From: an uncultured virus (IMG/VR IMGVR_UViG_2061766007_000136)
Taxonomy: Duplodnaviria > Heunggongvirae > Uroviricota > Caudoviricetes
IMG/VR virus record: IMGVR_UViG_2061766007_000136
Strand: one strand, 5' to 3'
Length of the DNA stretch: 64,000 nt
The notes under the pieces: generated by a model
The model's database searches: none
Told to the model about the DNA's origin: nothing
Seen by the model: only the letters and a program-made list of their open reading frames with translations
Made by a program: the position numbers and the translations under genes
Shown: positions 324 to 61,841 of the stretch, in pieces
Position numbering within the stretch: the first letter of the stretch is position 1
Layout: each line of letters opens with the position of its first letter

Positions 324-1694
324 ATGGAAAAGACCGAATACAATCAAATTCTGCATGTCGCGCAATTGCTGAAGGACAACGGGGGTCGCGCACTGTTGGT
401 CGGCGGTTGCGTCCGTGACTCCATTCTTGGACTTGACTGCAAGGACTATGACATGGAAGTCTACGGGCTGTCTATGGACAGAATCCGAGAGGTTCTGTCC
501 AAGGAGTACGCTCTTGATTTCGTCGGTGCGTCGTTCGGTGTGTTGAAAGTCCACGGTCTCGACGTGGACATCGCGTTGCCCCGCGTGGAGAACAAGACCA
601 GTTCTGGTCACAAGGGCTTCGATGTCCAATTCATCCCCGACCTGAGCTACGAGGACGCAGCGAGCCGTCGTGATTTTACAATCAACGCCATCATGCGCGA
701 CCCCCTGACCGATGAGGTCATCGACCCTTGGAACGGTATGAAGGACTTGAAGAAGGGCGTGATTCGCCATGTCTCCGAACACTTCGCCGAAGACCCGTTG
801 CGGGTGCTCCGAGCCATGCAGTTCGCGTCCCGATTTGATGCGGATGTCGCCGACGAAACCGTGAAGCTTTGCTCCACGCTGTCGCAGGGCGAACTGGCTC
901 AGGAACGCATCGCTACCGAATGGGAGAAGCTCCTGCTGAAAGGCAGACGACCCTCCAAGGGCTTGCGCTTCCTCAAGGCTTGCGGATGGATTGACAACTA
1001 CCCAGAGCTTAAAGCTCTGGTCGGGTGCAAGCAGGAACCACGCTGGCATCCCGAAGGAGACGTGTGGGAGCACACGTTGCATTGCCTCGACGCTGGCGTT
1101 GCGTTGCGCAAGGGCGACTTCGTTGAAGACCTGATTCTCATGCTTGCAGTCCTGTGCCATGACTTCGGCAAACCCGCCACGACGGAAGTGGACGAGGCTC
1201 GCGGTCGCATCATCAGCCACGGTCACGACGAGGCGGGTGTCGAACCAGCGAGGGCGTTCATCAGGCGCATGTGGAGCATGACGGAGCTTGACGACGTGTT
1301 GCCTCTTGTCAGACGGCACATGTTACCCATGACGTTCATTAGCACCAAGGTCTCCGACAAGGCGTACCGTCGTCTGTCGATGGAGGTCAGGAGCATGGGC
1401 TTGCTCGCGGATGTCGCCGAATGCGACTTGAAGGGCGTGGATGTCCCGAAGGAGAGCCTCGAACGCGGTCTATCAGACCTCGCAGAGTTCAGACGGCGTT
1501 CGGAGTCCCTGCACATTTCGACCGAGAAGCCGAAGCCCATCGTGTTGGGACGGCATCTCATCGCCCGTGGGATGAAGCCTGGTCCCAAGATGAAGCCCAT
1601 CCTTGACAAGTGCTTCGATGCGCAACTCGACGGCGAATTCATCGACCTCGAAGGCGGTCTGAAATACCTCGACGGTTTCCTTGAGAGTGTTTGA
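324..1694 (+). CDS. cca: CCA-adding enzyme / tRNA nucleotidyltransferase with HD domain
   Basis: VGGCVRD, DYDMEV, RRDFTINA and EDPLRVLRA class II NTase motifs; HPEGDVWEHT and LCHDFGKP HD-domain motifs. Confidence 0.92.
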   Translation: MEKTEYNQILHVAQLLKDNGGRALLVGGCVRDSILGLDCKDYDMEVYGLSMDRIREVLSKEYALDFVGASFGVLKVHGLDVDIALPRVENKTSSGHKGFDVQFIPDLSYEDAASRRDFTINAIMRDPLTDEVIDPWNGMKDLKKGVIRHVSEHFAEDPLRVLRAMQFASRFDADVADETVKLCSTLSQGELAQERIATEWEKLLLKGRRPSKGLRFLKACGWIDNYPELKALVGCKQEPRWHPEGDVWEHTLHCLDAGVALRKGDFVEDLILMLAVLCHDFGKPATTEVDEARGRIISHGHDEAGVEPARAFIRRMWSMTELDDVLPLVRRHMLPMTFISTKVSDKAYRRLSMEVRSMGLLADVAECDLKGVDVPKESLERGLSDLAEFRRRSESLHISTEKPKPIVLGRHLIARGMKPGPKMKPILDKCFDAQLDGEFIDLEGGLKYLDGFLESV

Positions 1695-1710
1695 CGGCTG
1701 TCGAAAACAA

Positions 1711-1748
1711 AAGCCATGCGGAAAAATCAGCACCGCATGGCTTTTTTA
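1711..1748 (+). terminator. Rho-independent terminator
   Basis: AAGCCATGCGG/CCGCATGGCTT stem followed by a T run, just after the cca stop. Confidence 0.8.
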
Positions 1749-1749
1749 T

Positions 1750-1778
1750 TTGCATTTCCGAAAATTGGATGTATATTA
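1750..1778 (+). promoter_or_regulatory. Recurrent phage promoter motif TTG(CA/AC)W-N16-YATATTA (representative copy)
   Basis: TTGCAT-16 nt-TATATTA; the same motif and spacing recur about 19 times upstream of genes on both strands. Confidence 0.75.
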
Positions 1779-1823
1779 ATAGTGTTGACGTAGAAAACAT
1801 TTAAAATCAAAGGAGAACATATA

Positions 1824-3029
1824 ATGAAGAATCTGATTGTTTTACGTGGAGCACCTGGTTGTGGCAAGTCCACTTTTATCGAGAAATGGAATTTGAAGCA
1901 GTACACCCTGTGCGGTGATTCCATCCGTGAGTTGTTCGAGTCCCCTGTTATGGACAACGAGCATGGTAAGCATACCCTTTCACAGAATCATGATACGGAA
2001 GTCTGGGGCTTGCTCCTGAACCTGCTTGAGCAACGCATGTCGCGTGGCGAGCTGTGCGTCGTGGACGCGACGCACTCCCGTCCGCAGGACTTCCAGAAGT
2101 ACAAGAAGTTCATCGAGAAGTATCGCTACCGCGCATACTGCGTGTCGTTCGCTGACGTACCGATTGAGGTCTGCAAAAAGCAGAATCTGATGCGTCCTGA
2201 GTACAAGCACGTCCCAGAGGAAGTCATCGACAAGATGTACGCACGGATGCAGTCGTTTGACGTGCAGGGCTACTTCAAGGTCGTGAACCACAATGACGAC
2301 GAGACCATCCGCAACATCGTCAACAACTACAAGCCGTTCGATGCGGACAAGTACAGCAAGGTCGTCGTGTTCGGAGACATCCACGGTTGCTTTCAGCCGT
2401 TGAAGGAATACTTCGACGCTAATCCATTCGACGACAACAATCTGTACGTTTTCACGGGCGACTACACCGACCGTGGCATACAGAACAAAGAGGTCGTCGA
2501 GTGGCTGTTGCAACACTACGAGAAGAAGAATGTCATCCTGCTTGAGGGCAACCACGAGCGTTGGGTGCGCGAGTACGCGAACGGCGACTACGACGAGGAG
2601 CTGAAAAAGGGAGAGAAGGACAAGTGCAAGAGTTCCGAATTCTTCTACAATACCGCTCCCCAATTGGTTGATTTCGACAAGAAGGACTTGCGGCAGTTGT
2701 GCCGTTCCTTCCAGACCATCGCATTCTTCAAGTTCGACGGCAAGCGGTACTTCGTGAACCACACGGGTGTCGGATTCCTGCCTGAGCAACTGCTCAGGGA
2801 GAAGGCGAGCCAGTTTGTCTACACGAGCGGTGGCAACGGAACGTACAACGACCCTGTTGACCAGTGGTTCGAGGAGCATGAGTTGGAGCGCAACCCAGAC
2901 TTGTTCCAAATCCACGCCCACCGCAACACGGCGAACGTCCCGATTCGTGCGTCGAAGAATTCGTTCAACCTCTGCGACACCATCGAGGCTGGCGGAAACC
3001 TCCGCATACTTGAAATCACGAAGGACTGA
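1824..3029 (+). CDS. Polynucleotide kinase-phosphatase (P-loop kinase + calcineurin-like metallophosphoesterase)
   Basis: GAPGCGKST Walker A and VVDATH; GDIHG, GDYTDRG and GNHE phosphoesterase motifs; no ligase domain fused. Confidence 0.88.
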   Translation: MKNLIVLRGAPGCGKSTFIEKWNLKQYTLCGDSIRELFESPVMDNEHGKHTLSQNHDTEVWGLLLNLLEQRMSRGELCVVDATHSRPQDFQKYKKFIEKYRYRAYCVSFADVPIEVCKKQNLMRPEYKHVPEEVIDKMYARMQSFDVQGYFKVVNHNDDETIRNIVNNYKPFDADKYSKVVVFGDIHGCFQPLKEYFDANPFDDNNLYVFTGDYTDRGIQNKEVVEWLLQHYEKKNVILLEGNHERWVREYANGDYDEELKKGEKDKCKSSEFFYNTAPQLVDFDKKDLRQLCRSFQTIAFFKFDGKRYFVNHTGVGFLPEQLLREKASQFVYTSGGNGTYNDPVDQWFEEHELERNPDLFQIHAHRNTANVPIRASKNSFNLCDTIEAGGNLRILEITKD

Positions 3030-3030
3030 A

Positions 3031-3729
3031 ATGAATGTCCGTGAATACATCGAACAAGCGATAGACAGGTTCTTCCTGTATCATCCTACATGGTATGTGA
3101 ACCATGACAGGAAGAACCAGCTTATCGAACGTTACGAGAAGAAATACGCTGGCATGGACATGGGGCGGTGCAGTCTGAACATGCTTCAAGTCCTCAACAC
3201 CAACAAGGTGATGTCGCCTTGGACTGAGGAGGAGCGCAACAGGCAACTTGATGAATCCGCATGGCACGAGGCAGGTCATATCCTAGGGTATTTCATCCTC
3301 AACTATCCTCCGAGATACGCATATATCAGCGAGGACGGAGATGGAATCGTCACACCCGATAATGAGGTCGCCAGCATGTTCTATGAACTCAAGAGAATCG
3401 CCTATGTCGGCGGATGGGCTTTCGAGAGAAAGCACTCCACTCTTGACAATTGCAAGATAAGCATAGGGTACGATTATCCAAGGGTGGAAAATTCAGACTG
3501 GGTGATGCTTGGAAAACCGTCAATCGAGGAAATGGACTGTCTTTCACGATACCTGTTCTACCACAACGGGACGGAGGCATTCGCCAAGCTCATCCACGAC
3601 GAGCTGGTTTCAAGGAAACGCCTTTCCCGAAAAAGAATCAGGATGATTTACGAAGAAGGCATGAAAATCAAAAAAATTTCCAAATGCATTTGCAATCTTC
3701 GAAAATGGATGTATATTAGTGGTTGTTAG
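3031..3729 (+). CDS. HEXXH metallopeptidase-like protein (M41/M50-like)
   Basis: AWHEAGH motif; ATG immediately after the previous stop. Confidence 0.55.
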   Translation: MNVREYIEQAIDRFFLYHPTWYVNHDRKNQLIERYEKKYAGMDMGRCSLNMLQVLNTNKVMSPWTEEERNRQLDESAWHEAGHILGYFILNYPPRYAYISEDGDGIVTPDNEVASMFYELKRIAYVGGWAFERKHSTLDNCKISIGYDYPRVENSDWVMLGKPSIEEMDCLSRYLFYHNGTEAFAKLIHDELVSRKRLSRKRIRMIYEEGMKIKKISKCICNLRKWMYISGC

Positions 3730-3804
3730 GAAAAATCGACAAAAAACATGCAGTTTGAATTGACTTTTCCGAAAAACGTACCATATTATATTGTAGTCAT
3801 TTAA

Positions 3805-3881
3805 GTCCCTGTAGTTCAGTTGGACAGAACGGCAGTTTCCTAAACTGCATGTCGCAGGTTCGAGTCCTGTCGGGGATACCA
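3805..3881 (+). tRNA. tRNA-Arg(CCT)
   Basis: Cloverleaf: GTCCCTG/CGGGGAT acceptor, GCAGT-TT CCT AA-ACTGC anticodon arm, GTTCGAGT T loop, CCA end; promoter motif at 3760-3788. Confidence 0.95.
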
Positions 3882-3917
3882 AAGTGTTCAAAGAGTCGTC
3901 ATAAAGGAGTTCGACAC

Positions 3918-4208
3918 ATGAAGAAAGAATCGGTCAAAATCACGAGCGCAAAGAAGAAGCAATTGTCCGTCGCAAGCATCATCGGGATGTCGATGGGGGC
4001 TGAAATCACCAACTACAACCGTCAAATCAAGAATGCGCCGAATGAAAGCGTCAGGAAAGCCTTGATAAAGGCACGTGACTCCTATCTTGAAAAGACGAAA
4101 AAGAAGAAGATTGAAAAGGAAATCGGCAAGCTCAACATTGAAATCCAGAGGAAGACTGCGGAACTCGAAGCTCTGAACCAGCTCAAAATCAAACCGACTG
4201 TCAAATAA
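3918..4208 (+). CDS. Hypothetical basic coiled-coil protein
   Basis: AAGGAG RBS and ORF. Confidence 0.6.
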   Translation: MKKESVKITSAKKKQLSVASIIGMSMGAEITNYNRQIKNAPNESVRKALIKARDSYLEKTKKKKIEKEIGKLNIEIQRKTAELEALNQLKIKPTVK

Positions 4209-4237
4209 GAAAAGCAAAACACACAAGGAGAAAACAC

Positions 4238-6451
4238 ATGAACAAAATGAATTCGTTCAAAATCTCGTCCGCCAAGACCGCCTCTAAAGCCGTCGAAGTC
4301 CCAGTCAACCATATTTTCGTCATTGACTGCTCAGGCTCGATGTCATACGACCTGCCGAAAATCCGCAAACAGTTGAAGAACAAGCTCCCGTCCCTTCTGA
4401 AACAGAACGACACGGTTTCCCTCGTGTGGTTCTCTGGCAAAGGGGAATTTGGCAAGCTGGTCGAGAAAGTCCACATCAACGACGTTTTGGAGTTGCGGCA
4501 ATTGAACGATGCCATCGACCGTTGGCTCAAGCCGATTGGTTGCACTGGCTTTGTCGAACCTCTTCGCACAGTCAAGGACTTGTGCGACACGAACGACGTG
4601 TACTCCATGATGTTCCTTACTGATGGATGTGACAACGAATGGCAACGTTCTGAAATCCTGTCCGCCAGCGAAGACCTCGCCACCCTGCTCGCAAACGCCG
4701 TTTTTGTCGAATACGGCTACTACTGCAACCACTCCCTCCTGACCGAAATGGCTGAAAAGGTGAACGGAGCAGTCCTCTTTGCCGAAGACTTCGACAAGTA
4801 CGACCCGATTTTCGACGGCATCTGCAAGCGCAAGCTGTCGAACAAGCGAATTGAAGTCGAAGTCGGCACCCCCGCCGAAAACTTCGTGTGGAGCGTCTCC
4901 GACGCTGGCGCGATTTCCTACAAGGTCGAAAACGGCAAAGTCTATGTCCCCGAAGACGTGGATGCAGTTTACTGGTTTGACAGCAATGCAACCACCACGG
5001 CTACCGACAGCATGAACTGGAAGCCCCTGTACCAAGGTCTGTCCGCCCTCGCCATGAACCGCAAGTCGGAATTCGTCAAGAAGCAGTTGTCCGACATCGG
5101 CGACGAAGCCCTGTACAACCAGTACGCCAACGCTTTCGGCAAGCAGAACCTCTACGACTTCGCCGACCTCCTGAACCGTGCTGGCACGGACAGCAAGCTC
5201 CGTTTCACGAAAGGCAGGAAAGTCGGTCTGAAACCGAATGAAAATGCGTACACCGTCTTGCAGTTGCTCAACGAGCTTCGCGAAGCGGATGCGCAAATCA
5301 ATCTTGAGAAGTTACAGTACAACCGCATCGGTCGTAGTACCGAAATGAGCGACGAGCTGACGAAAGCCGAGACCGAGGCGTTGAGCGAATCCATCGCCAA
5401 CTCCTCCAATCTCCGTGAAATCAAAGCCCATACGGACGCGGCTGCGCAACTCGCTCAGGAACGCGCACAGATGAAATTCGTCTCGAAGAAGAACATTGTT
5501 CGTATCAATGACTTCACGTACAACGAAACGCGCCCGAACGTCTCCATGCGCGTCAACATCGACGGCACGGTCGGTCTTCCGTCCGATGCCCCGTCCGCGT
5601 TGCCTCATGACTTCCCGACCAGCATCTTCCGCAATTTCACCGTCGTCCGCGACGGCATGGTGAACATCGCGAAGCTTCCTGTCATCATCTCACAGCCGAC
5701 CGTTGACAAGCTGAAAGCAAAAGGCGTTCCGATGACCATCGAAGACGACAGTGTGCGCGTGAATTCGCAGTCCTCAGTCCTCTTCGCCACTCCGAACCCG
5801 AACGGCATCAAATGCACCATCGACCTGCGCTCGATGCCTGTCATCAACGCCAAGATGGTCAAGTCCGTCAGCGCACAGGCTCTCGCGGACAACCTCTACG
5901 AGAACATGAAGTGCAAAGCGGCTGTCAAGGTGTACAAGGGCTTCCTCGACGAACTGGAACCGCCTGAAAAGTCCGCTGGCATCAAAGACCAGTACGGCGA
6001 AGACTGCGCCGAATACCTGAAGTCCCTCGGCATCACGGACGGCGGATTCTCCCCGAAGACCAAACAGGCTGAAGCGACCGACAAGTACATGGCAGTCGAA
6101 ATGGCTATCAAGTTCAAGGGCTTGTCCAAAATCCCGTCCTTCAACGAATTCAAGAAGAAGCTCACGTCAGGCAAGTTCAACGCAGGTGACATGTTGCTGA
6201 AACCCGCCTACGACGAATGCATGGCAAAGAAAGCCTCCATGTCTCAAAAGGATTTCATCGGCTGGCTCAAGACCAACATCAAGACGGCGAACAAGAAAGC
6301 TGGCAATCTCTACGAGAAAGCCATCGAGGACAAGTTCTCCATCGTCGTCGGTCAGACGTGGTTCAACGACCTCGATTTGAACAATCCGACGCTCGTTTCT
6401 AACGGCGTTGACGTGACGTTTGAAATCAAGGACACTGAAGTGGAAATCTGA
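4238..6451 (+). CDS. vWA domain-containing protein
   Basis: N-terminal IFVIDCSGSM MIDAS and FLTDG motifs; 737 aa with strong codon bias. Confidence 0.85.
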   Translation: MNKMNSFKISSAKTASKAVEVPVNHIFVIDCSGSMSYDLPKIRKQLKNKLPSLLKQNDTVSLVWFSGKGEFGKLVEKVHINDVLELRQLNDAIDRWLKPIGCTGFVEPLRTVKDLCDTNDVYSMMFLTDGCDNEWQRSEILSASEDLATLLANAVFVEYGYYCNHSLLTEMAEKVNGAVLFAEDFDKYDPIFDGICKRKLSNKRIEVEVGTPAENFVWSVSDAGAISYKVENGKVYVPEDVDAVYWFDSNATTTATDSMNWKPLYQGLSALAMNRKSEFVKKQLSDIGDEALYNQYANAFGKQNLYDFADLLNRAGTDSKLRFTKGRKVGLKPNENAYTVLQLLNELREADAQINLEKLQYNRIGRSTEMSDELTKAETEALSESIANSSNLREIKAHTDAAAQLAQERAQMKFVSKKNIVRINDFTYNETRPNVSMRVNIDGTVGLPSDAPSALPHDFPTSIFRNFTVVRDGMVNIAKLPVIISQPTVDKLKAKGVPMTIEDDSVRVNSQSSVLFATPNPNGIKCTIDLRSMPVINAKMVKSVSAQALADNLYENMKCKAAVKVYKGFLDELEPPEKSAGIKDQYGEDCAEYLKSLGITDGGFSPKTKQAEATDKYMAVEMAIKFKGLSKIPSFNEFKKKLTSGKFNAGDMLLKPAYDECMAKKASMSQKDFIGWLKTNIKTANKKAGNLYEKAIEDKFSIVVGQTWFNDLDLNNPTLVSNGVDVTFEIKDTEVEI

Positions 6452-6549
6452 CACGAACAATAAAAAAGCGCATGAATTGAAAAAAATTCTCCATCTCCAC
6501 TTGACTTTTTCAATTCATGCGCCATATTAAAGAAAAATGCTGACATGAA

Positions 6550-6595
6550 AAGACTCGAACAGCATTAAAACCAAACAGGAACAAACAGAGTCTAG
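6550..6595 (+). promoter_or_regulatory. 5' leader hairpin with ACAGCA motif (putative protein-binding operator RNA)
   Basis: AAGACTC-GA-ACAGCA...GAGTCTAG lies between the promoter (6501-6529) and the RBS; it matches the terminal stem of the permuted tRNA-like RNAs. Confidence 0.7.
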
Positions 6596-6617
6596 TACAA
6601 AAACAAAGGAGAAAAAC

Positions 6618-8155
6618 ATGTCGAAGATGATTTTTTCAGACGCACTGAAGAACACGCTGAATGATGAGAAGTCCATCACCGAGAACGGGGCGATAGGTTA
6701 CAAGACCTCGAAGTCCGCGCTCGTTGATTTCAACTTCAACGCATCATCGTTCCGCAACAAGGACGAGCAGGAGATTCGCGACGCTTTCGCGGAGGCTTAC
6801 AATGAGAATCCGTTGCTGGCTGTCAAGCTCCTGTTCATGACTGGCGACATCCGTCAGGGCATGGGTGAGCGTCGCACGTTCCGCACGTGCTTCAAGTGGC
6901 TCGCCGAATTCCATGCCAATGACGCGAAGAAGGTCGTGTCCCTCATCCCTGAGTATTCACGTTGGGACATCCTCGTGGACATGCTCGGCACTTCCGTCGA
7001 TACGGAGGCGTTCGGACTGCTCAGGAACCAGTTGGACACCGACACGGACAATTGCCTGAACGGTAAGCCGATTTCGCTCCTCGCGAAGTGGTTGCCTTCA
7101 GTCAACACGTCCAGCCAGACCGCCCGTAAGAAGGCGCGTTCCATCTGTGCCCGTCTCAAGCTGACGGAGCGCACGTACCGCAAGAGGCTGTCACAGCTTC
7201 GCAACTACTCGAACGTCGTCGAGACGAAGATGAGTGCGAACAATTGGGACGGCATCAAGTACGAGGCTGTTCCGTCCAAGGCTAACCTCCTGTACAAGGA
7301 GGCGTTCATGAAGCATGACGAGACCCGCCGCACGGCGTACCTCGATGCTCTTGAGAAGGGCGAGACCAAAATCAACTCCAGTGCGTCGTTCCCTTATGAA
7401 ATCGTTTCACGTTACCACTCCTACGCAGAGGATGCCACGCTTGAGCAGATGTGGAAGGCATTGCCCGACTACACCAACGGCAAGGGCGAGAACACGATTT
7501 GCGTTGTGGACGGAAGCGGTTCCATGTCGTCCAAAATCGGAGGTACGTCCGTCTCCGCAGAAGATGTCGCGCAAAGCCTCGGCATCTACTTCGCTGAGAA
7601 GATGCCTGGTCAGTTCCACAACCAGTACATCACGTTCTCCGAGCGTCCTCAACTCGTCAATTTCGACAACTGCGACACGTTGAAGAGCAAGATTGACGAG
7701 GCGAACCGNNNNNNNNNNNNNNNNNNNNNNNNNNNNNNNNNNNNNNNNNNNTTCTCCGCACGGCGAAGAAGCACAAGCTCTCGCAGAGCGACATGCCGAA
7801 GAGCATCCTCATCCTGTCTGACATGGAATTCGATTCCTGTGTCAGCTTTGGAGACAGGACTCTCTACTGGATGTCGGAGCAGGACAAGCTCAATGCTTGC
7901 AAGACCCTGTTCGAGACCATCGGCGACGAGTACAAGGAGGCGGGCTACGAGCTTCCGAAGCTAGTCTTCTGGAACATCATGTCCCGCACTGGAACCGTCC
8001 CGATGCAGGAAAACAAGAATGGTGTCGTACTGGTGAGCGGGTTCAGCCCGACCATCGCAAGCATGGTTTTCAGCCAGAAGAACAGCCCTTACGAGGTGTT
8101 GCTTGAGAAGCTGAATTCCAAGAGGTACGAGCCTATCGAGCAGGCTCTTGCGTAA
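6618..8155 (+). CDS. DUF2828-family protein (TROVE/Ro60-like helical domain + vWA), interrupted by an N gap
   Basis: TENGA, DIRQGMGERR, RWDIL, SLLAKWLPS, YEAVPSKA, VVDGSGSM, ILSDMEFD, LVFWN and LVSGFSP motifs; two ORF halves either side of the gap at 7709-7750. Confidence 0.85.
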
Positions 8156-8173
8156 GAGGACGTAGCTGACGGG

Positions 8174-8213
8174 AAAGCAGACTGGAAAGGAAACAATCCA
8201 GTCTGCTTTTTTT
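8174..8213 (+). terminator. Rho-independent terminator
   Basis: AAAGCAGACTGGA/TCCAGTCTGCTTT stem followed by a T run. Confidence 0.8.
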
Positions 8214-8229
8214 GTGAAAGAGGAATGCA

Positions 8230-8802
8230 ATGAAAAGACCTTACAATCCAATCGAAGACGGTCATATCAGCCGAAAGAAGATGAATGAATTTCTCCAAGC
8301 GAAGCAACAGAGGAAGAAGTACATCCTGTATGATAAAGTGGGCGACTTGTGGAGAATCATGGCTTGCAATACGATTTGGATGAGCATATATGGAGGAGGG
8401 ATAACTGTCTGGGAAGGGGATATTGGAGGATTTGTCGAATCGGAAGACAATCTTTCACATGATGGAAACTGCTGGATTTACGATACGGCGAAATCAGTCG
8501 GTCATGCGATTGTAAAGGACAATGCGCTTATCAAGCATTCCTCCATTGTAGAACAATACGCAATCGTATCTGGTGATGCAGTGTTGAATGATTGCACAAT
8601 AGTATCTGGAAATGCGACAGTATGTGACAAGGTTGTGACCAACGGAAATGTGTTCATAGTGGACGATGCCGTAGTGTGCGACGAAGCAAAACTGAACGGC
8701 GCAATCTATGTGTGTGGAAATTCGTGCGTCTGCGGACGTGCCAATGTATATACGTATAAAGGCGATTCAAAGATAATAGAAGGAGACATGGTGGTATGCT
8801 GA
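8230..8802 (+). CDS. Phage protein with left-handed beta-helix (hexapeptide-like) repeats
   Basis: GGFVESEDNLSHDGNCW followed by VxGxAxV repeats. Confidence 0.75.
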   Translation: MKRPYNPIEDGHISRKKMNEFLQAKQQRKKYILYDKVGDLWRIMACNTIWMSIYGGGITVWEGDIGGFVESEDNLSHDGNCWIYDTAKSVGHAIVKDNALIKHSSIVEQYAIVSGDAVLNDCTIVSGNATVCDKVVTNGNVFIVDDAVVCDEAKLNGAIYVCGNSCVCGRANVYTYKGDSKIIEGDMVVC

Positions 8803-9914
8803 TAGAAGATTTTAAAAAGACTATTCCAGATGTAATTGAGCTTATGAAAATTACACCACAAAATCCAAAGTGGCATGGAGAAGGCGATGTATGGACGCAT
8901 ACGCAGATGGTCATGGACGCATTGCATCTGATGGATGAATATCATTCTTTAACGGATATTGAACAAAAAGTGCTGGATTATGCATGTTTATTGCATGATA
9001 TTGGAAAAATTGAATGCACCCGTGTCGAAGAAGGGGAGATTACATCTCGTGGACATTCTTTTAGAAGTTCCAAAATGGCTCGCAAATTGATGTGGAATGT
9101 TGGTTTTAATGGGGAAAAACTTCTTGAATTCAGGGAAAGTGTATGCGCTTTGATTCGTATGCACGAAAAACCATTGTACTTTTTCAATGATGCAGAAGAA
9201 GACGAATATGAAGCGAAAATGAGTGTAAGACGTTTGTCTTGTTTCACTCCTGCTCCTTATTATAATCTCAACATGTTGCATATTCTTTCATTTGCTGATA
9301 TGAATGGAAGGATATGCAATGAAAAAACCAATTCTTTTGATTCAGTAGATTTGTTCAGGGAATGTGCCTTTGAAAATGACTGCCTTTATCAGCCTGCCCC
9401 ATGCTATGATGACTTTTCTCGTTATTTATTTCTAAACGGAAAGAAGATGTATCCCAATCAGAGAATGTATGACAACACATGGGGAAAAGTATGCATCATG
9501 TCTGGGCTTCCTGCTTCAGGAAAAACGACATGGATTGAAAAGAACCGTGCGGACAAACCAATTATTTCACTTGATGAAATCAGACGGGAAAACGGAATAA
9601 AGCCGTCGAGATGCCAAGGCAAGGTCATGGATATAGCTTTCAATCAGGCAAAGGAGTATCTCAGGAAGCATCAGGAGTTCACATGGGATGCCACTTGTCT
9701 AAATCCAGATGTCAGGGCTTTAATCATCAAGCTTTGCATGAATTATCACGCATTTGTCTCATTGTCTTATTTTGAAGTAAGTGATGCGGAAAGAGTGGAA
9801 CGCAATGCAAATAGAAAATGGGTGGTTCCAGACAATGTAATGGATGAAATGAAGGAAAATGTCATGCCTCCGATATATAGCGAAGCACATTCTGTTTCGT
9901 GGAATTGTCATTGA
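8796..9914 (+). CDS. HD-domain phosphohydrolase fused to a P-loop (AAA_33-like) kinase
   Basis: HGEGDVWTHT and LLHDIGK; C-terminal GLPASGKTT and WDAT. Confidence 0.85.
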   Translation: MLIEDFKKTIPDVIELMKITPQNPKWHGEGDVWTHTQMVMDALHLMDEYHSLTDIEQKVLDYACLLHDIGKIECTRVEEGEITSRGHSFRSSKMARKLMWNVGFNGEKLLEFRESVCALIRMHEKPLYFFNDAEEDEYEAKMSVRRLSCFTPAPYYNLNMLHILSFADMNGRICNEKTNSFDSVDLFRECAFENDCLYQPAPCYDDFSRYLFLNGKKMYPNQRMYDNTWGKVCIMSGLPASGKTTWIEKNRADKPIISLDEIRRENGIKPSRCQGKVMDIAFNQAKEYLRKHQEFTWDATCLNPDVRALIIKLCMNYHAFVSLSYFEVSDAERVERNANRKWVVPDNVMDEMKENVMPPIYSEAHSVSWNCH

Positions 9915-9987
9915 AATCGTTTGCAATTTCGGAAAAATGGTGTATATTAATTAAAAAGAGCAACATGAAAACCAAAGGAGTGACATC

Positions 9988-10698
9988 ATGAAACTAAAAA
10001 CTGAATATCTTGAAGAAATCAAAAATCAATTTGAACAGGACTGGAACAAATTGCAGGAGAATCTGAATGAGAAATTCGGGAAGCGCACGTTCAAGGACAT
10101 CTTCGACATGACTGAAACAATCATTGCGGATGAAGATTTATGTTTTGAATACCGCAAGATTTTCAAGGAAGCCGATGTCTGGACGAGATTTAGCGAATTC
10201 TCTCTGTATGTCGAAACAAGCACGGACAACATAGTCCGTGAATACAACAGGCTCTACGACAACATGTTTTTCGATTTCATCAATGACGGGCAGTGCCACA
10301 TTGTCAAGCTCACGTACAAGTACAAAGGTTCGGGAAAGGAATGGCATGAATATATGGTCGTCACCACAGACCTGTACAACATGGATGAATTCATGTTCAA
10401 GGAAACAATTCTCCGCAGGTCTCAATATAGCAAGAATGATTTTTTCAATGTAGAATACAAGCCACTCGGAACCGAGGAATACTACAGGCTCATGAGCCTG
10501 ATAGCCGACAGGAAGAATTACACGGACGATGATGAATTGGTCTTGTTTGAAAGCAAGCTCTATGACGAATTCTACGATTCCATCGACGGAATCGAGGACA
10601 TGAAGCCGTTCAAGAAGCTCAACATCGAGAAGTTAAAGAAGAATCTGACAAAAAAGAAAAGAGTAAATGACCATGCCGAAATACGATTACAAATGTGA
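9988..10698 (+). CDS. Hypothetical protein (paralog of 12789..13409)
   Basis: RBS and ORF; shares CH(I/M)VK...H(E/K)Y...Y(Y/W)(R/K)(L/I) pattern. Confidence 0.6.
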   Translation: MKLKTEYLEEIKNQFEQDWNKLQENLNEKFGKRTFKDIFDMTETIIADEDLCFEYRKIFKEADVWTRFSEFSLYVETSTDNIVREYNRLYDNMFFDFINDGQCHIVKLTYKYKGSGKEWHEYMVVTTDLYNMDEFMFKETILRRSQYSKNDFFNVEYKPLGTEEYYRLMSLIADRKNYTDDDELVLFESKLYDEFYDSIDGIEDMKPFKKLNIEKLKKNLTKKKRVNDHAEIRLQM

Positions 10699-10858
10699 AA
10701 AGTGCGGGGTGTTTGAAGTCGAGCAGAAGATAACCGACCCGAAGCTAACTGAATGCCCGAAATGTGGCGGAAAGGTGAGACGGTTGATTTCAAAGGGCGT
10801 GTCGTTGCAGTTCAAAGGCGAAGGGTTCTATTGCACGGACTACAAGGACAAGGAATAA
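10667..10858 (+). CDS. FmdB-family zinc ribbon protein
   Basis: MPKYDYKCEKCG...CPKCGG...RRLIS...FKGEGFYCTDY. Confidence 0.9.
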   Translation: MTMPKYDYKCEKCGVFEVEQKITDPKLTECPKCGGKVRRLISKGVSLQFKGEGFYCTDYKDKE

Positions 10859-10876
10859 GTAAAAAGATTAACTGAC

Positions 10877-11410
10877 ATGAAAAAGGGAAGAAAGGAATCA
10901 ATCAGAAAGCAGTGGTTTGGCGAAGGCTTCGTGAAGGAATTCAGCGAACTCGGATACTATGAGAGTTTCAAGCTCTGGAAGGACATCTGTGAAGTCGCGT
11001 TCAAGGATTTCACCGACGACGAACTGAAGAACCCAGTGTTCGTCAAGAACATGCAGTCGCTTTTCATTGACGAATCCATCCATCATTTCATTCGGTACTT
11101 CTTCGCCACAGCGATATGCCTCGGCATGTTCGGTGACAAATGCTTCGAGAATTCAAGGAATCTTCTGACAGAACAAGGCAACGACGAGGAGTTCAAGAAC
11201 AAGATAACGCACCTCGTGAAATTCGGTATCAACATGACCAAGGATGAGAAAAGACAGAGCCATGAATACATGAACCATGTGTATTTGAAAGAATGCGGTT
11301 ATTCATACGCAGTATGCAAGCTCAACGCCAAGAAATCCGAAGCGAAGGAATTCTTCGACAATTTCGACGACTTAGCTCAAGGCTACTATCTTTCAAAGAA
11401 TCTGGACTGA
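10877..11410 (+). CDS. Hypothetical protein, tandem paralog family member 1
   Basis: LGYYES..L and FIDESI...IRY motif shared with the next three genes. Confidence 0.6.
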   Translation: MKKGRKESIRKQWFGEGFVKEFSELGYYESFKLWKDICEVAFKDFTDDELKNPVFVKNMQSLFIDESIHHFIRYFFATAICLGMFGDKCFENSRNLLTEQGNDEEFKNKITHLVKFGINMTKDEKRQSHEYMNHVYLKECGYSYAVCKLNAKKSEAKEFFDNFDDLAQGYYLSKNLD

Positions 11411-11441
11411 TTTGGAAAAAAGATTTCAAAGGAGTAGTATC

Positions 11442-11891
11442 ATGACGGAGCAAGAAATCAAGGAAAAACTTCAAAGCAACCTCGACGGGATTTTCGACGG
11501 TCTTGGCTTCTATGAGACAGTGGAGCTGTTTCTGGAAATGATTGATGTCATTTCTCACATGGACGGTTATAAAGTCAAATATGTGGTCAAGCCGAATTTC
11601 CAGAAGATGCTGTTTGACAAATCAATCCCGTATCATGTAAGGATGACAATGATAAGATTGATGATTAATAGCGAATGCCCACTCAAAAGAGAACTGTTGA
11701 GTGGGAAAGAGATTTGTGACTGGATACGTTCGAATTTTTATTTAAAAGACAAGGAAATGAGTGCAAAATTGGATTGTATTCGCCACACATTGAACCCGTC
11801 GTTTCTTTTGGAATCATCAAAAGAGAAAAGAAAGGAGTTTTTCAGCAATTTCGACCAGAATGTTGAAAATTACAAAAAAATGAAAAAATAA
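11442..11891 (+). CDS. Hypothetical protein, tandem paralog family member 2
   Basis: LGFYET, MLFDKSIPYHVR, SECP. Confidence 0.6.
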   Translation: MTEQEIKEKLQSNLDGIFDGLGFYETVELFLEMIDVISHMDGYKVKYVVKPNFQKMLFDKSIPYHVRMTMIRLMINSECPLKRELLSGKEICDWIRSNFYLKDKEMSAKLDCIRHTLNPSFLLESSKEKRKEFFSNFDQNVENYKKMKK

Positions 11892-11896
11892 TCCAA

Positions 11897-12310
11897 ATGG
11901 AAAGGGTATTGAGCATGACGAAAGAAGAAATCAAGAAAAGACTGCACAACGGAAACTGCCATGAAATCCTTGGAAGTGCCAGTTTCCTTGAAGCGGTGAA
12001 ACTGTGTTTTGAAATAAACGAAACCATTACCGACATGCCAACGGAGGAAGTGCAAGAGATTGCAACGAATGTCAAGAGTATGATTCTGGACGAATCCGTT
12101 CCGTTGCATGTAAAGTATATGTTCATCAGGATTTTGTGCGAAAGCGAATGCCCACACAAAAGAATGCTGTTGGAAGGGCAAGACGAGTTGAAGAACATCA
12201 TCTCTATCGGAGTTGGAAACTACACAGGTGGATATGATGAGCACTCCGTTGAGCAATTAAAATACATCCGTTGCAATTTCAAAAGATTGAAAGACAAGGA
12301 ACAACAGTGA
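11897..12310 (+). CDS. Hypothetical protein, tandem paralog family member 3
   Basis: FLEAVKL, MILDESVPLHVKY, SECP. Confidence 0.6.
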   Translation: MERVLSMTKEEIKKRLHNGNCHEILGSASFLEAVKLCFEINETITDMPTEEVQEIATNVKSMILDESVPLHVKYMFIRILCESECPHKRMLLEGQDELKNIISIGVGNYTGGYDEHSVEQLKYIRCNFKRLKDKEQQ

Positions 12311-12792
12311 AACAATATGAAAAAAACCAGCGCAATGTCAGACTGATGTTTCATGGACTTGATTTTTATAATTCCATGATGCTGTACAAGAAATTAATTT
12401 TATCATTTTCCTTAATGTCGGCAGAACATATTATTAAATTCATCAAGCCATTTCAAAAAATGTTGCTTGATGAAGAAATTCCATTGTACATCAGATATCT
12501 TTTCATATACATTATTATTTGTGAATATTTTTGTGAAAAACAGCATATAAAAGCATTGCTATGCAATAATAAACGTCTAACAAGCATAGCAAGAGCATCA
12601 ATTTTGCCTTCTGATTTAAGAAAATGGACTGAACAAAAAGATGCCATCAGAATAGGATATATAAAAAAAGGTCTTCACAGTGAAGATGTGCTGAAACTTC
12701 TGAATGGAAACAAAGAAAGTTTCGAGCGGTTTGATAAAATGGCTACAGAATGGTATGAAAAGGAAAAATTGAGTGAAGGATATCTGAAATGA
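12307..12792 (+). CDS. Hypothetical protein, tandem paralog family member 4
   Basis: LDFYNS, MLLDEEIPLYIRY; GTG start overlaps the upstream stop. Confidence 0.55.
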   Translation: MKQYEKNQRNVRLMFHGLDFYNSMMLYKKLILSFSLMSAEHIIKFIKPFQKMLLDEEIPLYIRYLFIYIIICEYFCEKQHIKALLCNNKRLTSIARASILPSDLRKWTEQKDAIRIGYIKKGLHSEDVLKLLNGNKESFERFDKMATEWYEKEKLSEGYLK

Positions 12793-13409
12793 CAAGCAAG
12801 GAAAAATATTTTGAAGATATGAGACAACTCGCCGAATTCCAGTGGAAGACATACGAGAAGTTACTCAATTCAAAAATTCGTGGAAAAACGGGTCGCGCAA
12901 TCATTGAAAAGATTCTGGAAATACATGCCGACAGCACGAATGTGCTGTATTACATTGGATTGTTCTTGTTAAAAGATGTGGCGGAGGATACGATAATAGA
13001 AGATTACCTGTATCTCAATCCAGAAGTAAAAGATTATGTCGCGGAGCGAATCAAGTTTTTAAAGAATCTTTCCTACGCATTTGAATGCGCATGCGAATGC
13101 CACATGGTCAAAATCATGCTTGACCCTTGTTGCGAAGGTTGCAAACCATATCATAAATATGCCATTACGACAAAGCACGTCCATTTGATGAATGAGCAGG
13201 AGAAGCTTGATTTTGCAAGAGGCGTGACAAATACTTACAGAAAGGAATTTAAAGGTCTTGAAAGCAAATTCATGTCTTTCTCGGACTACTGGAAAATACT
13301 CGAAGCATTGGCTGGTGAAACAAGCTATGTTCAAAGAAACAATCCAGTGGCTCCAAAATACTTTGACAAAGCTATATTAGACAAAATCTACGATTCCATT
13401 GAAGAATAA
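12789..13409 (+). CDS. Hypothetical protein (paralog of 9988..10698)
   Basis: ORF coupled to the upstream stop; shared C-terminal pattern. Confidence 0.6.
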   Translation: MTSKEKYFEDMRQLAEFQWKTYEKLLNSKIRGKTGRAIIEKILEIHADSTNVLYYIGLFLLKDVAEDTIIEDYLYLNPEVKDYVAERIKFLKNLSYAFECACECHMVKIMLDPCCEGCKPYHKYAITTKHVHLMNEQEKLDFARGVTNTYRKEFKGLESKFMSFSDYWKILEALAGETSYVQRNNPVAPKYFDKAILDKIYDSIEE

Positions 13410-13424
13410 AAATGGAGACGGAAA

Positions 13425-14165
13425 ATGGAAAAGATACTCAAATATCCTAGAACGCAACATCTGCAAGGCTCGCGTCTGCAAGCTGGGGACGAGGACTTGT
13501 CGCAAGTCCCCTTTTCCGAAATCCGTGGCAGGAAAATCGTCGTCGAGGAAAAGATNNNNNNNNNNNNNNNNNTTCAGCTCCGAAGGCGACCTGCTCTTGC
13601 AGAGCCGTGGGCATTATCTGACAGGCGGTGCTCGTGAAAAGCATTACAACCTGTTCAAGGAATGGGCGAATCACCATGTAGATGCACTGTTCGACATTCT
13701 TGGCGACAGGTATATCCTGTACGGAGAATGGATGTACGCAAAGCACACCGTGTTTTATGACGCGCTCCCACACTACTTCTTCGAATTCGACATTTGGGAC
13801 AAGCAGAGGGAAATCTTCCTTGATACGGCGACAAGGCATGCGATGCTGAAGGATTCGCCTGTGCTGTCCGTCCCAGTCATCACGGAACGCGCCTTCGACA
13901 AGCTGGAGGACTTGACCAGTCTCATCGGGCATTCGCGGTACATCACCGACCATCACATCGAGGCGTTGAAGGAATACTGCGTCCAGAACCCGAAATGCGG
14001 ACCAATCGAGGACAGGCTGAACGAAACCGACCATTCCACGAAGATGGAAGGAATCTACATCAAAATCGAGGAAAATGGTGAGACGGTAGGAAGGCTGAAA
14101 TTCGTCCGCAATGAATTCGTGCAGATGATTGTAAGTTCGAACGAGACATCGAGCCACTGGCTCGC
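13425..14165 (+). CDS. ATP-dependent RNA ligase family protein (broken by gaps, 3' end uncertain)
   Basis: KYPRTQHLQGS, VVEEK (motif I, then gap), YGEWM, FEFDIWD, EGIYIK, LKFVR. Confidence 0.82.
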
Positions 14166-14349
14166 NNNNNNNNNNTCCGCATTACTTCTTCGAATTCGAC
14201 ATCTGGGACAAGCAGAGGGAAATCTTCCTTGATACGGCGACGCGCCATGCGATGCTGAAGGATTCGCCTGTGCTGTCCGTCCCAGTCATCACGGANNNNN
14301 NNNNNGAGGGAGACGATATATCAACCAGTAATAGAAAAGGAGTACAATT

Positions 14350-24031: not shown

Positions 24032-25906
24032 ATGAGAAACAACATAAAGATAGCCAAGGATTTAATAAGGATAGCCAAGATGCTCCTTGCTTTCAGCAGG
24101 AATGAACTTGAAAGGCAGTTGAAGCAAATGAATGTTCCAAATTTGAACATTGATGAAAATTTGGAATGTCTTGAGAAGATGTCTCCAAAATCACAGAAGG
24201 CAGCATTGTTCTGGATTAGAAGAGGTTCTTTAATTCTTCCTGAAGATTTAAGTAAATTCGAGCAGGCAATGAACCTGATAAACAAACAGCGTCTTGATTT
24301 TCAAAAATTCGACAGTCCAATGGATGTGATAAACAGAAATGACAAATCCACAAAGAAAATCAAAAGCCAAGACATCTCATTCAATCCCGATACAGAACCA
24401 GCATTTTTCAATAAAAAAGCTTTGAAAAATGGAGTAACTGTATATTATGTAAAAAACACAAAGGAAGGACAGATAGCAGTAAGAAAGGCAATAGATGCCA
24501 ACTGGGGCTATGACAAAAACCCGTGGTGTCTCGCAGCAAGAAAATCTGGATTCGACCAGCAGGAAATTGATTCATTAACTGAAGAACAAAAAGAACGTTT
24601 AGGATTGTATGGAGGTGAACTGGATACCGCTTGGACTTATTGGAATCGTTATAACAAATATCAAAAAAGAATCGCTTTCCAGAATGGGAAACTTCTGGCT
24701 TTCTGTGCCAATGATTGTTATGAAATAGTATGGTGGGATAAGAATGACAAATCTTCTGACAACATCCCAGGTCTTGATTTCATTGATGATGATATGGAGT
24801 TTCTCATGAAATATGAACAAAAGAAGTTGTCCAAAAATTTTCATACACCTCCAGAAATATTAGAGCAACTGGCAAACAGTCATGACTATGATGTAAAATT
24901 GTCCGTTGCTGAAAATCCGAACACACCTATAAAAGTATTAGAGCAACTGGTAAATTACGATAATGATGATATAAAAATCTCCATTGCCAAAAATCCCAAA
25001 GCATCTTCTGAAATGCTTGAAAAATTGTCGAATGACAAGAATATGGAGATAAAACAATTAGTCGCCAAGAATCCAAATACATCAGCAGGCACTCTGGAAA
25101 AGCTGTCATCTGAAGAAAATTTAAAACTAGATATAGCTTGTAATCCAAATACATCTGCTGAAACGCTTGATAAACTGGTAAAAATCGACGACATACACGA
25201 ATTAGATTTTAGTCAATTCAAACTGTTGAGTTGTATAGCCGAACATCCAAATATTTCTGATAAAACACTTTTAAAAATGATAAATAATGAAACTATTTCA
25301 TCACTTATATCATATTCAATCCTTGAAAATCCAAATGTGCCTGTCAGCATTATCGAAAAATTGGCGTGTGAAGGAAACGAAGAGACAAAATGTCGTGTCG
25401 CCACATGCCCGAAGACACCAATCAGCATATTGAAAATACTAGCAAATGACCAGTCACTTCACGTGAGACGCTCTGTTGCTTCAAATCCGAACATATCAGA
25501 TGAAATGCTGGCAAATTTCATGAATGATGAAAACAATTACAAAAAAAGCCTTTCCAAGAATCCAAAGACTCCTTCGGAAATGCTCGCAAGACTGGCTGAT
25601 GACGAAAACGATGAAATAAAAACAAATGTCTGTAACAATCCTAATACTCCAGTCAATATACTGGAAAAATTTTCAAATGACAGTAATTGGCGTATAAGAA
25701 GAGCAGTTGCTTCAAATACAAGCGCGACTGAGGAAATACTTGATAGGCTATCAAATGACCGTGAGATAGGAGTAAGAGTTGCTGTTTCCTATAATCCTAA
25801 AACACCAATGTGGATACTGGAAAATTTAGCACGTGAAAAAGAAACAGGGGTAGGTAGTGTTGCAATCGAACGATTAAAAAAAGTAAAACAGCAATCAGAG
25901 TTGTAA
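24032..25906 (+). CDS. Protein with IAK-L-AK-LLA leader and many LRV/HEAT-like (NPNTP) repeats
   Basis: About 14 repeats of the VAxNPNTPxxxLxxL type in the C-terminal half; NPWCL motif. Confidence 0.8.
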   Translation: MRNNIKIAKDLIRIAKMLLAFSRNELERQLKQMNVPNLNIDENLECLEKMSPKSQKAALFWIRRGSLILPEDLSKFEQAMNLINKQRLDFQKFDSPMDVINRNDKSTKKIKSQDISFNPDTEPAFFNKKALKNGVTVYYVKNTKEGQIAVRKAIDANWGYDKNPWCLAARKSGFDQQEIDSLTEEQKERLGLYGGELDTAWTYWNRYNKYQKRIAFQNGKLLAFCANDCYEIVWWDKNDKSSDNIPGLDFIDDDMEFLMKYEQKKLSKNFHTPPEILEQLANSHDYDVKLSVAENPNTPIKVLEQLVNYDNDDIKISIAKNPKASSEMLEKLSNDKNMEIKQLVAKNPNTSAGTLEKLSSEENLKLDIACNPNTSAETLDKLVKIDDIHELDFSQFKLLSCIAEHPNISDKTLLKMINNETISSLISYSILENPNVPVSIIEKLACEGNEETKCRVATCPKTPISILKILANDQSLHVRRSVASNPNISDEMLANFMNDENNYKKSLSKNPKTPSEMLARLADDENDEIKTNVCNNPNTPVNILEKFSNDSNWRIRRAVASNTSATEEILDRLSNDREIGVRVAVSYNPKTPMWILENLAREKETGVGSVAIERLKKVKQQSEL

Positions 25907-25909: not shown

Positions 25910-26617
25910 TTACAACAAAAACATTTGCTCTGGTCTTTTTTCTATCTTGGCGTTATTCTCAATGACTTGTTTTTCGCCAGTCGAATTGTTGACGATGGTT
26001 TTGCCGATGAACGAACCAAGCTCGTAAGTCGAATTGTCACCCTTCGGATATGGAAGCACTTCGTATCTCAATGCATTCGTCCATTCCTTCCTAAGTTTCT
26101 TCGAATTTGTGCAGAAATAGACATAGCGATGCTTGATAGAACGCTCGACACTATATTCATCTTTTCTCACATCGAACGAATCCGCATGCCTGTTATGCTT
26201 CGTCTTGTCAGGACTGTACTTGTCGGCATGAGGAGATGAAGTGCCCGTGTACATGAAATTACAAGCTTGATAAACATAGCCGTGGTGGTTCATGGCAAGG
26301 TCGGAATACGACACCACAATCCAGTCCAACGGCTTGAGCATTTTGAGCGTAGCAGATACAAAATGGGACAGTTGCTTCTTGTATGTCTCCAGACGGCACA
26401 TGCGGTTGAGTTCATAGACGTTTCCAGACCATTTCTCCCCGCAAATCCCCTTGCAGATAGTGGGGCTTGCTGGTTTTCCGTAAGTGATTACCGCTTGCAG
26501 GATTCCATCCTCAACCAATCCAAATGCCTTGCTGACGACTGGTTTCCTACCAGAGTAATGACGGGGGAGGAGAAAATTGATTGCGTCGTCATGTGATATT
26601 TCAATGATTGACTCCAT
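25910..26617 (-). CDS. Mom-family adenine-modifying GNAT acetyltransferase
   Basis: HYSGR, YGKPAS, YELNR, VVSYSD, HHGYVYQACNFMYTG, KHRYVY. Confidence 0.8.
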   Translation of the reverse strand: MESIIEISHDDAINFLLPRHYSGRKPVVSKAFGLVEDGILQAVITYGKPASPTICKGICGEKWSGNVYELNRMCRLETYKKQLSHFVSATLKMLKPLDWIVVSYSDLAMNHHGYVYQACNFMYTGTSSPHADKYSPDKTKHNRHADSFDVRKDEYSVERSIKHRYVYFCTNSKKLRKEWTNALRYEVLPYPKGDNSTYELGSFIGKTIVNNSTGEKQVIENNAKIEKRPEQMFLL

Positions 26618-27051
26618 CAATGCCACCCCCAATTCGACTTCGTATCCCTCGCGTCTTTCAGGATATCCTTAAAATCCTTAAAACGCATCGGTTTATCACA
26701 TCCAGCATATCCATATATCTGGTCGTCATCATAATCACCAATAAGATTTAGCAACATGCTTGCGGTATAATGACCAAATTTGCCTTCACAATCCGAGCAA
26801 TAAAGAAAGTCTATTATTTTACCGTACTTCTTCCGATATTTACGATAGAGTTTCTCGGTCTTCGCATCGTACTTTTTATAGAATTCCTTATCATCAGTAA
26901 AACCGACATCGTCTAAAAGTATATAATGCTCCCTGAGTTCATCGCATGGAATCAGGTTTCCAATTGTCCTGCGCAATCTTCTGAACCCGCCATAACCCAT
27001 GTCATTGCTCAAATTCTTTGAAAAAATCGTAATGCCCATGACTGACCTCAA
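26617..27051 (-). CDS. Hypothetical phage protein
   Basis: GYGGF..LR and FLYCSDCEG; coupled to the next gene. Confidence 0.55.
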   Translation of the reverse strand: MRSVMGITIFSKNLSNDMGYGGFRRLRRTIGNLIPCDELREHYILLDDVGFTDDKEFYKKYDAKTEKLYRKYRKKYGKIIDFLYCSDCEGKFGHYTASMLLNLIGDYDDDQIYGYAGCDKPMRFKDFKDILKDARDTKSNWGWH

Positions 27052-61776: not shown

Positions 61777-61841
61777 TTTTAACTTACACTATTAATATGA
61801 TACGTTTTTCTGAAAAGTCAAGTCATATTGATGATTTTTTA

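Follow-up and report, generated by a model that had tools for sequence, protein, structure and literature searches.

The question raised by this locus is why the messenger RNA of a phage DUF2828 protein should carry, just before its ribosome-binding site, a hairpin and ACAGCA motif like those of a set of small structured RNAs encoded about 55 kb away. The window referred to below is the whole stretch of DNA analyzed, 64,000 nucleotides in length. An earlier note had described the leader as a stem followed by GA, ACAGCA, and an A-rich loop, with about 10 nt to AAGGAG; all of these parts were found in place (Table 1). The stem has 6 bp, 10 nt separate the tail G from AAGGAG, and, with the ATG in Table 1 as the start codon, the N terminus of the protein aligns with those of its relatives. 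The hairpin was present in both the minimum-energy and the centroid folds; it is thermodynamically weak (-6.3 kcal/mol alone), and the z-score of the whole leader, -0.99, was uninformative, so that thermodynamic support was dropped from the argument. A further helix in the minimum-energy fold, 6542-6547 with 6617-6622 in the start-codon region, encloses the module. No terminator-like site (intrinsic terminator or attenuator) was found within 6530-6618, an A-rich stretch following the 3′ arm, and comparison of the leader with Rfam returned no family at E ≤ 10.

Table 1. Features of the window discussed in the text (R3 is a covariance model described below)
Feature	Position	Strand	Description
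CCA-adding enzyme	324-1694		RNA-repair island
Kinase and metallophosphatase	1824-3029		RNA-repair island
tRNA-Arg	3805-3881		RNA-repair island
vWA protein	4238-6451		RNA-repair island; 737 aa
Inverted repeat	6468-6522	+	Perfect, 17 bp (6468-6484 with 6506-6522); after the upstream gene; arm alignment
Promoter of phage-specific class	6501-6530	+	-35 TTGACT (6501-6506), 18 nt, -10 TATTAA (6525-6530)
Leader module	6550-6595	+	5′ UTR of the DUF2828 gene; sequence inspection and R3
Leader 5′ arm	6551-6556	+	AGACUC; unpaired A at 6550
Leader spacer	6557-6558	+	GA, 2 nt
Leader core	6559-6565	+	ACAGCAU (ACAGCA, 6559-6564)
Leader loop		+	A-rich, 23 nt, between ACAGCA and the 3′ arm
Leader 3′ arm	6588-6593	+	GAGUCU, then tail AG (6594-6595)
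Shine-Dalgarno sequence	6606-6611	+	AAGGAG; start codon ATG at 6618-6620
DUF2828 and DUF7788 gene	6618-8155	+	Pfam; phrog_850 "RNA-binding protein" (PHROGs)
HD and kinase protein	8796-9914		RNA-repair island
RNA ligase	13399-14232		RNA-repair island
Y4	61649-61776	-	Architecture as Y1; own promoter at 61792-61821; R3 25.6 bits
Y3	62050-62176	-	Architecture as Y1; R3 21.3 bits
Y2	62318-62425	-	Architecture as Y1; R3 22.6 bits
Y1	62436-62576	-	YrlA-like permuted-tRNA RNA; stem AAGGCAC/GUGCCUU, core GCAGCAA; R3 28.8 bits, E 5.6e-5

The RNAs that the leader resembles, Y1 to Y4, are 108-141 nt long and lie on the minus strand at 61.6-62.6 kb among tRNA genes. The consensus previously written for them matched exactly four sites in the window, all on the minus strand within 61761-62576, against 0.61 expected. 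Alignment and consensus folding showed a T arm, an acceptor-like hairpin, and a terminal stem of 7 bp in which compensatory changes occur; a D arm was clear in one of the four. The best match to the Rfam YrlA family (RF02553) was given by Y3, with 28.8 bits at 62072-62142, below the gathering threshold of 69, and Y4 matched the Rfam tRNA model with 30.8 bits at 61705-61762.

Several other observations were made in and near this cluster. At about 61430-61660, a 10-N run (61546-61555) is flanked by a near-identical duplication of about 110 bases that takes in the 3′ end of Y4, apparently an artefact of assembly. A 17-base identity (ACAGCGTCTTGATTTTC) to the 3′ end of Y4 and its flank was seen at 24280-24296, apparently in coding sequence. 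Two minus-strand stretches, about 62870-63230 and 60560-60800, are without long ORFs, adjoin tRNA genes, and have similarity blocks in common; they may be larger non-coding RNAs, and no Rfam match at gathering score was obtained for either. On the same strand, 63355-64000 holds an ORF with many cysteine pairs, by eye resembling an HNH endonuclease, and an apparent 3′ half of a tRNA (T arm and acceptor strand) follows directly after it; the region could be an interrupted tRNA gene.

Simple searches leave room for the explanation that the leader and the four RNAs are alike by chance. The 16-mer pattern with 2 mismatches allowed had 16 matches in the window versus 8.0 expected, and R1, a covariance model made from the four Y-like RNAs of the window only, scored the window leader at 11.9 bits with an E-value of 2.9 (the E-values of R1, R2, and R3 are rough). 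Within the window alone, the sequence evidence for the resemblance is weak. R1 found the leaders of three related loci, L001-L003, at E of about 0.03; an R1 match at 24112-24173 was rejected, being inside coding sequence with the core GAAGCAA. A second model, R2, was made from 17 short copies of the module, the window leader included. The third, R3, was made from 103 R2 hits representing 65 non-redundant loci, with the window and loci L001-L012 excluded; its training rows are foreign sequences, and their choice was not blind because R2 contained the window leader. When R3 was run on the window, five matches were obtained at E < 0.01, namely Y1, Y4, Y2, Y3, and the leader; the last ranked fifth with 21.1 bits (E 0.0062), and the next match had 12.6 bits. 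No other gene of the window was found to have the module in its leader, the R2 and R3 matches below the top five scoring at most 14 bits and lacking a proper stem. Comparative evidence, at the level of sequence, is decisive for the resemblance: locus, strand, position, R3, and the scans of whole records described below effectively refute chance, which we regard as exceedingly improbable.

Covariation in the stem was assessed over the 103 copies. Double changes occurred in 7/7 pairs, and 0/500 shuffles reached the observed score. Paired cells made up 99.2%, a figure partly built in, since pairing-aware tools had been used to gather the copies, whereas the range of pair types is free of this bias. 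The earlier note had called a U-A pair unique to the leader. This holds within the window, where it stands at stem position 6, and fails family-wide, as 10/103 copies have U-A. The leader module is real and homologous to the handle of the Y-like RNAs.

In IMG/VR, the three nearest relatives show the module where the window has it, with compensatory stem changes. Their DUF2828 proteins are 68-69% (L001 and L003) and 48% (L002) identical to that of the window. The leaders of L001 and L003 combine an AGGCUC/GAGUCU stem with ACAGCAA, and that of L002 has AGAUAC/GUAUCU, which differs by two compensatory pairs. Scanning of the whole records with R3 gave 3 hits in the 255-kb contig of L001 (leader E 0.009), 3 in the 329-kb contig of L003 (leader E 0.012), and 5 in the 61-kb contig of L002, where the leader was the top hit with 49.2 bits. 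The non-leader hits in the contigs of L001 and L003 form a tandem pair about 26 kb from the DUF2828 gene.

A profile of 69 family members was used to collect 80 further DUF2828 loci, out of at least 551. The earlier note had proposed that a covariance model be scanned upstream of DUF2828 genes in other genomes, and the module was indeed concentrated around these genes: R2, run over 79 loci (570,927 bases), gave 192 hits at E ≤ 1, 191 of them on the strand of the DUF2828 gene, and at E ≤ 0.01 the figure was 103/103. The sole strong hits in the 131-kb genome of Listeria phage P100 were two copies directly upstream of gp165, a DUF2828 homologue 36% identical to the L001 protein; beside them is a third copy with a longer loop. 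The module is specific to DUF2828 loci. It matched no family of Rfam 15, and five module-rich loci compared with that database were also without a match. Genes annotated "tRNA-OTHER/Undet", 110-121 nt in length, lie just 3′ of DUF2828 in Cronobacter phage S13 (L101, 3390-3632) and Synechococcus phage B23 (L103, 3372-3481); most likely they encode tRNA mimics of the Y-like kind. Several records of Listeria phages show small hypothetical proteins annotated where the module lies.

This distribution also bears on the reading in which stem and ACAGCAA are a processing or stability signal for a phage or host ribonuclease, punctuating tRNA, Y-RNA, and mRNA transcripts, instead of a handle for the DUF2828 protein. 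Copies are located in tRNA-rich, polycistronic regions, and the leader of L001 and L003 is preceded by a tRNA on the same transcript, both of which favour such a signal. However, the module tracks the DUF2828 gene and not tRNA arrays generally: the 131 kb of P100 give only 2-3 hits, which lie directly upstream of the gene except for a weak one, the contigs of L001 and L003 have only their 3 hits each, and the other tRNA spacers of the window were without the module in the R3 scan. A processing signal is accordingly considered improbable.

The DUF2828 gene of the window lies within an RNA-repair and tRNA-maturation island (324-14232; Table 1). Its apparent split into two ORFs (6618-7964 and 7793-8155) arises where the record has a gap, filled with N (7709-7752), and a frameshift was rejected; in relatives the gene is a single ORF of 514-519 aa. 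Because of this gap, the L001 protein (69% identical to that of the window) was modelled instead, with a 69-row alignment. The AlphaFold model had a pLDDT of 91.8 and a pTM of 0.91. When it was compared with the PDB by Foldseek, every match at E ≤ 0.001 was a Ro60/TROVE structure aligning along the full length (about 530-590 columns; TM scores of 0.43-0.58); Xenopus and human Ro60, Deinococcus Rsr, and the Ro60 of Thermus phage phiLo were included. Isolated vWA/MIDAS domains came after these, and the MIDAS residues D300, S302, and S304 (DxSxS) are invariant. As modelled, the DUF2828 protein folds like Ro60, with a TROVE HEAT-repeat ring and a vWA domain with a MIDAS site. At the sequence level, Pfam gave DUF2828 and DUF7788 only and not TROVE (PF05731), and a profile search of PDB sequences with the DUF2828 protein returned no Ro60 chain. 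The family is large, with 6,487 clusters at 50% identity (E ≤ 0.001) and 704 phage records.

The earlier note had argued that the motif links the DUF2828 protein to the RNAs, and this is supported by the concentration of the module at DUF2828 genes, its near-absence elsewhere in the records, and the Ro60 fold. Considering the R3 result in the window, the leader copies in 46-50 of 75 clusters of loci (see below), and this fold, a link between the protein and the RNA handle is strongly supported by comparative data, and from it we infer that the protein binds the handle.

The position of the module relative to the start codon was determined as follows. Start codons were predicted, four of them being corrected manually, and duplicates (L003, L004, L005, L007, and L047) were removed; the remaining 88 loci formed 75 clusters, L048 and L049 being kept as two similar clusters. 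A strict descriptor was used, requiring at least 6 bp with at most 1 G-U pair, a 2-nt spacer, NCAGCAN, and 8-140 nt from core to 3′ arm. In 46/75 clusters, a copy satisfying this descriptor has its end no more than 60 nt before, and no more than 10 nt beyond, the first base of the start codon. R2 matches added L016, L017, L031, and L063, giving 50/75 clusters with a leader copy; 25 to 29 of the 75, L012 among them, are without one. Among the first nine loci, a leader copy was found in 7/9, compared with 0.042 expected from shuffles, and an eighth (L009) lay beyond the 150-nt limit. The position profile contained 48 sites at -70 to -1, then 27, 12, and 11 in bins further upstream, on a background of about 1 per bin, with a second rise past the stop codon (10, 11, and 9 sites per bin); strand totals were 279 sites on the plus strand versus 83 on the minus strand. 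Position of the module at the ribosome-binding site is conserved, not universal.

These positions bear on the main rival of a regulatory role, in which the leader copy is nothing more than a mini Y RNA, the final or sole one of its locus, co-transcribed with the protein gene so that both products arise together, perhaps processed out, and with no effect on translation. Arrays of the module are found on the same strand upstream and directly downstream of the DUF2828 gene, and Y RNA genes have been described immediately 5′ of Ro60 genes, as for Yrl1 and Yrl2 in Thermus phage phiLo (PMC12135203), both as would be expected of mini Y RNAs. About a third of the clusters lack a leader copy, and in 16/46 the module ends 31-60 nt from the ATG, which is far for steric occlusion. 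On the other hand, the distance from stem to ATG is at most 30 nt in 30/46 clusters, leaving no room for a terminator or promoter, and in 14/46 the stem ends within 3 nt of, or overlaps, the best Shine-Dalgarno-like hexamer. Vibrio phage nt-1 and locus L010 have the Shine-Dalgarno sequence in the loop and the AUG covered by the 3′ arm, while 10 nt separate the 3′ arm from the AUG in Stenotrophomonas phage DLP_6 and 7 nt in Synechococcus phage B23; copies so placed on or near the start region are parts of the mRNA and cannot be separate RNA genes. A protein bound over the AUG or at the Shine-Dalgarno sequence would hardly be neutral for initiation. In the window, as in L001 and L003, the leader copy is moreover the sole copy near the gene, the others being 26-55 kb away.

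Seven cultured phages were checked, and a copy within 60 nt of the start was found in four (nt-1, EF1, B23, and DLP_6); the last copy is 73 nt upstream in Listeria phage P100 and 85 nt upstream in Bacillus phage PK-3, where a T run follows it. Cronobacter phage S13, which is outside the 75-cluster set, had no leader copy. The copies themselves gave no sign of a specialised, weaker operator: leader-proximal and stand-alone copies (46 versus 135) were not measurably different, with the core ACAGCAA in 31/46 versus 101/135, a CUAG tail in 12/46 versus 24/135, and a mismatched outer pair likewise in 12/46 versus 24/135. A CUAG tail or a weakened outer pair had appeared as a leader-specific signature in the first few loci; it did not hold family-wide and was rejected. 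That leader and stand-alone copies are indistinguishable is again as expected of mini Y RNAs. Taking both sides together, a co-transcribed mini Y RNA without regulatory role is judged unlikely, though a serious contender.

The promoter of the leader belongs to a class with the pattern TTGACTTTT, 12-16 nt, ATATTAA, which has 6 exact matches in the window versus 0 expected. Three of the 6 (61168, 61792, and 62283) drive the Y-RNA/tRNA cluster, and a promoter class common to this cluster and the DUF2828 gene is consistent with coordinated synthesis. From the promoter, the leader transcript is predicted to start near 6537. The inverted repeat at 6468-6522 has the -35 box of this promoter in its 3′ arm, and on the minus strand it is followed by a T run.

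RNA evidence consisted of assembled contigs from four metatranscriptome studies (X4, X11, X14, and X19), in which depth is not comparable between parts of the gene. No contig over the leader was found in X11, X14, or X19. One low-depth contig of X4 spans 6473-6622; because its first base precedes the predicted promoter, the contig does not confirm the transcript start and does not place the leader on the main mRNA. Contigs over the DUF2828 coding sequence begin at 6633-6652 in 4/4 runs and break at about 7364-7426 in 3/4. A join of 7388 back to 6635 in X4, and of 7387 to 6633 in X11, gives a circular-looking 754-nt piece of the DUF2828 mRNA; this 6633-7388 join could reflect RNA circularisation (RNA ligases are encoded by the phage), template switching, or an error of assembly.

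A stem plus ACAGCA before the ribosome-binding site, recurring in many related phages, suggests that the DUF2828 protein limits its own production. Among the mechanisms considered, autogenous translational repression by target mimicry fits the comparative data best; the conserved position of the module at the ribosome-binding site supports it indirectly, and we give it about an even chance. The leader hairpin would be a cis copy of the handle, that is, a helix of 6-8 bp, 2 nt, and RCAGCAA on the 5′ strand, and the Ro60-like protein would recognise the same handle on the Y-like RNAs of the phage. With the protein gene and the Y-RNA/tRNA cluster transcribed from one promoter class, Y-like RNAs in excess would be loaded with the protein; once free protein accumulated, it would bind the copy of the handle located in the 5′ UTR of its mRNA, 10 nt away from the Shine-Dalgarno sequence, hinder binding of the 30S subunit, and so repress its own translation, the mRNA being a competitor of the Y-like RNAs. 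Two features looked for in such an operator are present: a 5′ UTR element resembling the ligand (by the R3 E-value above, and assuming that the Y-like RNAs are the ligand), and its placement adjoining or overlapping the ribosome-binding site, seen in the window and, with a gap of at most 3 nt, in the 14 clusters noted above.

The positional evidence for repression is identical to that for a positive action, in which the protein, by opening or stabilising the 5′ UTR once bound or by co-translational assembly on its own mRNA, raises expression or stability. Since the enclosing helix of the minimum-energy fold includes the start codon, a protein-induced rearrangement is conceivable. However, this outer pairing was not evident in L001-L003 and belongs to a fold with a z-score of only -0.99, and a 3′ arm over the AUG fits occlusion better. 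Positive action is thus considered quite improbable, even beside a processing signal.

Extending the repression model, we propose tentatively, and with somewhat less than even confidence, that DUF2828 is a very large phage branch of the Ro60 fold with its own handle, helix-NN-ACAGCAA, common to tRNA-mimic Y RNAs, mini Y RNAs, and the ribosome-binding region of its own mRNA. Within an RNA-repair island of the phage, protein and RNAs together would make up a self-titrating ribonucleoprotein, the amount of protein being set by the supply of Y-like RNAs or by competing damaged RNAs. The role of bacterial and phage Ro60 is poorly understood, and the DUF2828 branch has been without a described RNA partner. 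A defined handle of 20 nt would make partner RNAs annotatable across hundreds of phage genomes, some of them currently mis-called as small ORFs or odd tRNAs, and offers a precise target for mutation. The leader copy makes a simple circuit testable in cultured phages (Enterococcus EF1, Vibrio nt-1, Listeria P100, and Bacillus PK-3). If true, this would be the first known autogenous control of a Ro60-type protein, the literature search having yielded no counter-example.

Autogenous operators that mimic an RNA target include the E. coli thrS leader, which resembles the anticodon arm of tRNA-Thr, the operators of ribosomal proteins, and those of T4 RegA and gp32. The DUF2828 leader is like the thrS type in that a ligand-like structure occupies or adjoins the ribosome-binding site in the 5′ UTR of the mRNA for the protein itself, and in the expected logic, by which ligand and mRNA compete for free protein. 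It differs in that the protein is a Ro60-like ring and in that repression here is predicted.

Literature searches returned nothing about phage RNA for DUF2828, nothing relevant for Ro60 autoregulation, and no binding, footprint, or reporter work on any DUF2828 protein; the handle helix-NN-RCAGCAA and its leader copy were found in neither Rfam 15 nor the literature searched. ROT/TROVE proteins have been noted in jumbo phages by Iyer et al. (PMC7824862, available part), and the available text on phiLo Ro60 makes no mention of mRNA, autoregulation, or a handle copy in a 5′ UTR (PMC12135203). A close case is the P100-like Listeria phage CKA15, for which, in the accessible portion of the report, abundant non-coding transcripts are described upstream of the Rsr-like gene CKA15_055, and Y RNAs are suggested to be encoded there on the same strand (PMC12282133). 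This gene and that of P100, which has three module copies upstream, belong to the same family. Neither a motif or handle nor a leader copy is described in that portion of the report (PMC12282133). The one transcribed region with coordinates given in the text, 26,236-26,727, does not overlap the three-module stretch, located by BLAST at 25,214-25,632 in CKA15, and that stretch could not be linked to the highly transcribed regions (PMC12282133, available text). CKA15_055, of DUF2828 type, was also detected by mass spectrometry in purified virions, as the same text states (PMC12282133), so the protein may be packaged.

Comparison with the ribonucleoproteins of Ro60 (Rsr) and Y RNA shows differences at the level of sequence and a parallel in architecture. 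YrlA was defined by Chen et al. 2014, with the permuted order of T arm, acceptor-like hairpin, and D arm, and the part of that paper available to us gives GNCGAAN0-1G or GGUCCGA as the 5′-strand motif of Y RNAs bound by TROVE proteins (PMC4201824). Unlike these, the DUF2828 handle is helix-NN-RCAGCAA (motifs from the same part of PMC4201824), the protein is DUF2828/DUF7788 and not Pfam TROVE by sequence, and the RNAs of the window fall below the gathering threshold of Rfam YrlA. Ro60 contacts mainly the 5′ strand, again by the portion available, and in the DUF2828 handle too the sole conserved strand beside the helix is the 5′ strand (PMC4201824). Like the Ro60 systems, the DUF2828 protein is, as modelled, a ring plus vWA domain; its putative partner RNAs have an end-closing stem beside a 5′-strand motif, some with a permuted tRNA-like domain; and the genes for these RNAs are grouped with that for the protein and with those for RNA repair.
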